Shown one piece after another: positions 5,322 through 5,446 of a stretch of 64,000 bases of DNA. Made by a program: the position numbers and the translations under genes. Below the pieces are notes generated by a model that was not told where the DNA came from, made no database searches, and saw only the letters and a list, made by a program, of their open reading frames with translations. How positions within the stretch are numbered: position 1 is the stretch's first letter; each line of letters starts with the position of its first letter. The stretch is taken from NCBI GenBank assembly GCA_005223125.1, contig NJBH01000007.1, forward strand, positions 85,097 through 149,096, written 5' to 3'. This stretch comes from Promethearchaeota archaeon Loki_b32 (GTDB lineage Archaea > Asgardarchaeota > Lokiarchaeia > Sigyniarchaeales > SOKP01).

Positions 5322-5446
5322 TTCGTGTAGAGTAAGATTACACTGCTTTAATTTCACATCTAGAAAGGGATTCACTACTTTTGGTTTACTCTCATTGATG
5401 CATTTCTTCAGTGTTCTAATTTACATTAGATTTATCCTTACTCCAT
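5322..5446 (-). other. 125-nt BHB intron in 23S rRNA between E. coli-equivalent G2599/A2600
   Basis: Interrupts CGUGAG|ACAGG; central helix CGUG/CACG, bulges AG^A and AA^A, 10-bp intron stem UGGAGUAAGG/UCUUACUCUA. Confidence 0.92.

Follow-up and report, generated by a model that had tools for sequence, protein, structure and literature searches.

A putative relaxed bulge-helix-bulge intron with an exon-complementary loop in the 23S rRNA gene of a lokiarchaeon

A 125-nt insert in helix 93 of the 23S rRNA gene

The stretch of DNA analysed here (the window, 64,000 nucleotides (nt) of contig NJBH01000007.1 of Promethearchaeota archaeon Loki_b32) carries on its minus strand a 23S ribosomal RNA (rRNA) gene that is interrupted in the peptidyl-transferase centre by a 125-nt insert without an open reading frame (ORF). 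The insert has the marks of an archaeal bulge-helix-bulge (BHB) intron and, in addition, a loop that is complementary to both of its exons. Genome BLAST found a single 23S copy in the assembly, which amounts to 4.13 Mb in 71 contigs and is 95.5% complete. Features of the insert and its surroundings are given in window coordinates, and rRNA positions follow E. coli:

4859..8322, minus strand: 23S rRNA host gene (Rfam RF02540, 2480 bits, full model; genome BLAST)
5322..5446, minus strand: ORF-less intron of 125 nt between G2599 and A2600 (helix 93); relatives hold intron-less alleles
5449..5452, minus strand: CGUG (2594-2597), contributed by the 5' exon to the central 4-bp helix; in other lineages it and the intron strand covary (C-G to U-A, family f13)
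5324..5327, minus strand: intron strand CACG of the central helix
5446..5448, minus strand: 5' bulge AG^A, the 5' splice site
5321..5323, minus strand: 3' splice site AA^A, located within an internal loop and not a closed bulge
5436..5445, minus strand: 5' strand of the 10-bp terminal intron stem (h')
5328..5337, minus strand: 3' strand of the same stem
5409..5414, minus strand: ACACUG, pairing with CAGUGU at 5340-5345; covarying equivalents in loci L070, L093 and L040
5415-5430, minus strand: UCUAAU/AUUAGA hairpin, within the decayed ORF end at 5392..5436

Excision of the insert, which has a GC content of 32% and splits GUGAG from ACAGG, restores GACCGUCGUGAG joined directly to ACAGGUCGG. The exon is restored by two registers only, GAG^A/GAA^A and AGA^U/AAA^C; only in the first does each cut follow the second base of a 3-nt bulge, with the CGUG/CACG helix in between, and the second was rejected as it restores the exon but lacks the central helix. 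No ORF was found in the intron, stops being present in five of the six frames and the sixth being open for 41 codons only. An earlier note on this DNA had described a 125-nt ORF-less insert beside A2602 whose removal restores the 23S sequence exactly. That description is borne out, and the location in the peptidyl-transferase centre is refined to helix 93, with a cut that we take to be G2599/A2600, two bases 5' of A2602. What speaks decisively against chance or misassembly as the source of the insert is the presence, in other assemblies, of 31 further distinct introns at the same junction.

The central helix has four of four pairs in 30 of the 32 family members and is adjoined at the 5' bulge by the intron-intron helix h', which measures 10 bp here and covaries freely across the family. 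Beyond the 3' cut, U2593.C2601 and G2592.A2602 are unpaired in 32/32 introns before four exon-exon pairs follow, and because of these two mismatches the 3' site sits in an internal loop. The predicted motif is thus not the strict hBHBh' form; it is of the relaxed HBh'/BHL (bulge-helix-loop) type in all 32 members. The BHB assignment of the earlier note stands for the central helix, the 5' bulge and a perfect h', and it has to be loosened at the exon-exon helix, which opens with the two mismatches; the terminal stem and both internal pairings named there (UCUAAU/AUUAGA and ACACUG/CAGUGU) are all present. Folding of the whole region is only modestly non-random (z -2.07). Given one 23S copy in an assembly of this completeness, it can reasonably be inferred that splicing would be essential for a functional ribosome.

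A loop complementary to both exons

Inside the intron, a stem presents a loop whose two ends match the exon stretches flanking helix 93:

5389..5401, minus strand: 5' strand of the stem presenting the guide loop (3' strand 5356-5367)
5382..5388, minus strand: guide arm 1, UAAACC(A), complementary to 5' exon 2582-2587
5368..5374, minus strand: guide arm 2, (U)GAAUCC, complementary to 3' exon 2607-2612
5459..5465, minus strand: 5' exon target GGGUUUA (2581-2587, includes U2585)
5308..5314, minus strand: 3' exon target GGAUUCU (2607-2613)

This loop is kept in 32/32 introns, even among those without mutual BLAST similarity, as a stem-closed element that starts with U-R-R-A-C-C and ends with G-A-A-U-C-C, the first arm being the reverse complement of 5' exon 2581-2587 and the second that of 3' exon 2607-2613. 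In the 125-nt intron each arm can form six Watson-Crick pairs (p=0.003, 2000 dinucleotide shuffles). Across the family the stem-closed two-arm match is better than dinucleotide shuffles at p<=0.05 in 28 of the 32 introns, a scan with free exon offsets lands on the helix-93 flanks in 25, and among the 352 cells of the 11 core positions 336 are Watson-Crick and 6 are G-U. The distance from the end of the guide to the 3' end of the intron is 40-49 nt in 23/32 introns (median 45 nt), and apart from the exon pairings most of the loop is unpaired in the predicted fold. Coding and ORF-less introns retain the loop equally, with or without an endonuclease, which points to a role in splicing and not in homing.

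Furthermore, the loop changes in step with the exons. The exon change U2586C is accompanied by a guide change from A to G at loci L059, L099 and L156, A2609G by U to C in L158, A2609U by U to A in L172 and L174, and U2610C by A to G in L118. With one exception these guide positions are otherwise invariant, and exon changes at 2585 are G-U compatible. In permutations over 23 lineages the observed covariation score was reached by 0/200000. This parallel change across Asgard archaea suggests that the loop may hold the cut ends for the splicing enzymes.

The possibility that the loop is a DNA-level inverted copy of the homing site was rejected, since the arm order is wrong for an inverted duplication and the changes are G-U compatible. 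An H/ACA guide is disfavoured as well, its polarity being opposite to that of a pocket and its spacing a misfit; H/ACA or C/D box motifs were judged by eye only, and no Rfam match was obtained among 10 loci.

Introns of 111-793 nt were also observed at position 2450 (L086, L094, L095, L119, L152, L160-L164, L167, L173, L183, L186 and L191). Under strict settings, a stem-closed two-arm match to the introns' own exons was found in 3 of the 14 that were testable, and there too an arm follows an exon change, with ACGACU facing AGUCGU and ACAACU facing AGUUGU. The two-arm design, undetected in most 2450 introns, may therefore recur.

Intron family, ancestry and splicing enzymes

The 32 distinct introns share the identical junction across Asgard archaea and range from 97 to 860 nt. 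The family was assembled from pattern scans, endonuclease homologues and genome searches; the pattern scan is blind to hosts with a GGAC 3' exon, the result covers Asgard only, and most pattern matches in two collection scans were set aside as chance occurrences outside rRNA. Twenty-three members are ORF-less (97-306 nt), eight (773-860 nt) contain a two-motif LAGLIDADG gene that is intact, and a single member, 422 nt long and truncated to the C-terminal half of that gene, is an intermediate form; the endonuclease-containing versions that the earlier note proposed to look for in Asgard 23S genes are thus present as eight intact genes and one truncated gene. Besides the host's own family, no fewer than five further Asgard families have members. 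Within the own family our tally gives 38 listed genomes with an intact site against 6 with an intron, a patchy presence as expected for a mobile element. The gap at the site in genome G035 (locus L030, contig C362) was rejected as a member: it is a different, group I-like intron near 2593, a few bases upstream, in a 23S gene that looks foreign to its Asgard bin, and it holds a small ORF.

Evidence on ancestry comes from genome G208, which belongs to the same genus as the host and whose 777-nt intron (L058) is identical to that of Promethearchaeota isolate LW40_87; this also supports the placement of the host in Lokiarchaeia. The 125-nt intron is 71% identical over 113 nt to the 3' end of this coding intron and 73% identical over 88 nt to the 3' end of L086, and it retains decayed end codons of the gene:

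5392..5436, minus strand: decayed last LAGLIDADG codons (KLEH-stop like L070, or DK..HQ-stop like L058)

The shared 3' end and the retained codons together indicate that the 125-nt intron is a deletion derivative. The idea of a degenerate homing intron, advanced in the earlier note, is thereby upheld by same-site introns with an intact LAGLIDADG gene, one of them in the same genus. No close homologue of the intron endonuclease was found elsewhere in the host genome; the one candidate for a remnant in the genome or the 23S trailer, a distant 25% match on contig C56, was rejected. Having neither an ORF of its own nor a close endonuclease homologue in the genome, the intron cannot move by itself.

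At several other loci a free-standing gene accompanies the site. In L101, L102, L118, L123, L151 and L154, where the 2599 intron is ORF-less, the 23S gene is followed downstream, on its own strand, by a close homologue of the intron endonuclease, and the intron-less locus L125 has such a homologue in the same arrangement. Where the gene end could be placed, the distance from the 23S gene is a few hundred bases. These homologues and that of L117 are about 50-70% identical to the intron-borne LAGLIDADG proteins, and all but one have both motifs. A tree of intron-borne and free-standing endonucleases yielded no direction of movement. Locus L124 holds an endonuclease homologue at about 255-860, no rRNA, and a short direct repeat with GGTATACGACCACCA on both sides. 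The combination of an ORF-less intron with a free-standing endonuclease resembles the collaborative homing of phage introns (PMC2988022).

The genes expected for splicing are encoded in the genome, which contains two EndA paralogues, on contigs C18 and C2, and an RtcB ligase gene on C48. The catalytic EndA subunit has its best match in the Aeropyrum pernix alpha subunit (E 2e-35), with the Tyr/His/Lys motifs and a GxPLxxxKPR loop, and its specificity loop and lysine are seen in the alignment to 3P1Z/3AJV/2CV8; the second subunit lacks the His motif. According to Kaneta et al. (PMC5829648), relaxed introns are removed only by (alpha-beta)2 and epsilon2 EndA with a specificity loop, and the Asgard EndA is of the loop-bearing type. 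Judged by its genes, the host would thus have the two-subunit loop-type EndA and the ligase that relaxed BHB introns need, and the intron is presumably excised from the transcript.

The same 23S gene contains further inserts. A 30-nt hairpin at 6142-6171 (minus strand, about position 1927) has a CUCU/AGAG helix and UA^A cuts, and its removal restores CUCUCUUAAGGUAGC. Another 30-nt insert lies in helix 91 at 5514-5543 (minus strand); its removal gives the exact L119 allele, it is present in some relatives and absent in others, and could represent either a mini-intron of the relaxed-BHB kind or a helix extension that varies. More inserts at about 2560-2580 were observed in L118 (1-510), L151 (55-320) and L173 (near 1480-1510), so that in some Asgard 23S genes several introns lie no more than 150 nt from the catalytic centre, with very short exons left between them. 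In the window the 16S gene is unlinked to the 23S gene, lying about 55 kb away on the same strand (8322-63604). Just downstream of the 16S 3' end, at 63322-63423 on the minus strand, ARAGORN places a transfer RNA (tRNA) gene for Val with a 30-nt intron, an uncertain call.

A proposed clamp on the exons and its relation to known introns

We consider that the insert is a relaxed-BHB remnant intron whose loop serves as a cis-acting clamp, stabilizing the splice motif and holding the exons for ligation, and we assign this reading a probability of about 0.68. It builds on position, motif, ancestry, enzyme genes and covarying complementarity as seen in the sequence, and from these we infer splicing, action in cis and the step that is helped. 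The intron would go back to a LAGLIDADG homing intron at 23S position 2599 that underwent an internal deletion, and it would be kept because helix 93 can be restored only by precise splicing or precise loss. In the pre-rRNA, exon CGUG would pair with intron CACG and the terminal stem would form, giving the relaxed BHB motif, which an (alpha-beta)2 EndA would cut at AG^A and AA^A before RtcB joins the exons and probably circularizes the intron. As the exon-exon helix beside the 3' site is defective, the intron would bring its own clamp: the hairpin loop would fold back onto 2582-2587 and 2607-2612 to create, together with the 4-bp base of helix 93, a four-way junction, the arm order setting the guide stem opposite that base, as a pseudoknot relative to the intron. 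Such a clamp could stabilize the cleavable fold in competition with long-range pairings of the peptidyl-transferase ring, and could keep the cut exons together, and the 40-49 nt between guide and 3' end would fit a U-shaped fold that returns the loop to the exons in cis.

Several points weigh against this reading. Each arm is weak alone (-4.0 and -6.0 kcal/mol), hence any effect must come from cooperativity and tethering, and the clamp is a pseudoknot, which lies outside the scoring of the folding program. The compensatory events are few, in four or five independent lineages; for L099 and L158 the closing stem served to fix the guide registers by hand; the host tree, of weak resolution, groups L099 with L156 and sets L059 apart without strong support; and if each divergent host is assumed to have been bound to change both bases, the most conservative bound on the covariation is about 0.01. 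What covariation demonstrates is pairing, neither its purpose nor its action in cis. A second 23S copy without the intron could, moreover, lie in unassembled sequence.

The pairing could instead serve after or apart from splicing, with the excised, possibly circular, intron acting in trans on nascent 23S rRNA as a folding chaperone, a modification guide or a means of targeting re-insertion. Archaeal introns that carry guide RNAs do exist, as in the tRNA-Trp intron, the targets flank helix 93 in spliced and intron-less rRNA too, so that pairing in trans is possible, and several members can close a short upper stem to give a two-strand pocket. However, the polarity is opposite to that of an H/ACA pocket, the targets are separated by a 19-nt hairpin and not by two bases, and no Rfam guide or ribozyme family matched any of 10 loci at E up to 5. 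The conserved distance between guide and 3' end (median 45 nt) suggests a cis geometry, and the absence of the intron from most relatives argues against an essential trans function. We thus regard a role in trans as unlikely.

Quite unlikely, too, is an ordinary remnant BHB intron whose loop is conserved for protein binding or for its own tertiary fold, the exon complementarity being incidental. The short arms, the mere 4 to 5 compensatory events, the tendency of long-branch hosts to change more everywhere, and the ability of the exon flanks to pair weakly with each other without the loop are all compatible with it. The guide, however, gives the exact complement at every exon change in 2586, 2609 and 2610, and the same two-arm design is met on different exon sequences at position 2450 in the 3 of 14 testable introns. 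It is very improbable that the insert escapes splicing and extends helix 93, that it arose in assembly or that it marks a dead copy beside a missing intron-less gene, for although the assembly is in 71 contigs and large expansion segments occur in Asgard 23S rRNAs (PMC7594248), the very same junction, together with covarying BHB helices, is found in introns that measure 97 to 860 nt and of which some include whole genes, the insert displaces A2600-A2602 in the catalytic centre, and the remaining gene scores 2480 bits over the full model.

Beyond the single intron, the clamp would lead to a wider proposal, which in our judgement could go either way: Asgard archaea would possess a class of guide-assisted, protein-spliced introns in which a two-armed loop grips both exons at catalytic-centre sites of 23S rRNA where the exons lack a proper motif, the four-way junction being required for cleavage by EndA or ligation by RtcB, and the ORF-less 2599 forms would also be spreadable by a free-standing endonuclease copy behind the 23S gene.

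Exon-binding elements are otherwise familiar from self-splicing introns, as the internal guide sequence of group I (P1/P10) and the exon- and intron-binding sites (EBS/IBS) of group II, where an intron loop likewise pairs with both exons. The insert differs from these in that it has no ribozyme core, for which 97-125 nt are too short, its targets are 12 and 7 nt off the cut sites and do not touch them, and its ends follow the EndA register and not U.G / omega-G, the intron ending in AA. Identity with group I or group II was rejected, there being no Rfam intron match in the window or in 10 loci, and the archaeal group I survey lists large-subunit position 2593, not 2599 (PMC6125680).

With the crenarchaeal BHB rRNA introns (Jay and Inskeep 2015, PMC4496867) the 2599 family shares a conserved rRNA site, a BHB-type core, a long terminal stem, the occurrence of coding, remnant and short forms at one site, and a patchy distribution among relatives; it differs in its Asgard host, relaxed motif and site 2599/2600. 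Whereas the internal structure of BHB rRNA introns is generally not conserved within a site (PMC4496867), the exon-complementary loop at 2599 is kept in all members. The 125-nt intron, which has the sequence features of the relaxed form, would accordingly act like the BHB rRNA introns of Thermoproteales (PMC4496867). The non-canonical HBh'/BHL tRNA introns, as described in PMC5829648, are alike in having one closed bulge, one looped site and an (alpha-beta)2 EndA with the L1/CSL loop; those reports (PMC5829648; for Asgard tRNAs, PMC11291895 and bioRxiv 10.64898/2026.10.13.758758) concern, in the passages found, tRNA introns only, whereas here the host is 23S rRNA and the intron has its own exon-binding element. 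Free-standing endonucleases that bring about the collaborative or trans homing of phage introns (PMC2988022, PMC2790892) have their likeness in at least six other Asgard loci, the host genome here being without a free-standing endonuclease gene.

In a literature search, in which subscription journals were incompletely and older work on archaeal intron structure only partly covered, we found no report of Asgard rRNA BHB introns, in agreement with the earlier note, nor of an exon-binding loop in any BHB intron. Site 2599/2600 was not found in the literature covered, the main published intron-site list lying outside that coverage, and positions 2598-2601 are not mentioned in PMC11270868. The intron type is known, and its lineage and site appear to be new.

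Were it not for the loop, the insert would amount to a known kind of intron met in a new lineage. The usual view is that BHB introns require no more than a small local motif, the sites open to them being limited by it; a covarying loop that grips both exons, if true, would add a new element to archaeal splicing and account for the survival of these introns at motif-poor peptidyl-transferase sites. It would also mean exon recognition by intron RNA, otherwise a mark of group I and group II ribozymes, in an enzyme-spliced intron, and it bears on the shared design or ancestry of BHB and guide-using group I introns, a question raised in PMC6125680. At 125 nt, the intron would make a small substrate on which recombinant EndA and RtcB could be tried directly. 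Moreover, the 2599 family displays a homing life cycle at one site, as intact, truncated and ORF-less forms and as ORF-less forms with a free-standing endonuclease, in the group of archaea that are the closest prokaryotic relatives of eukaryotes.
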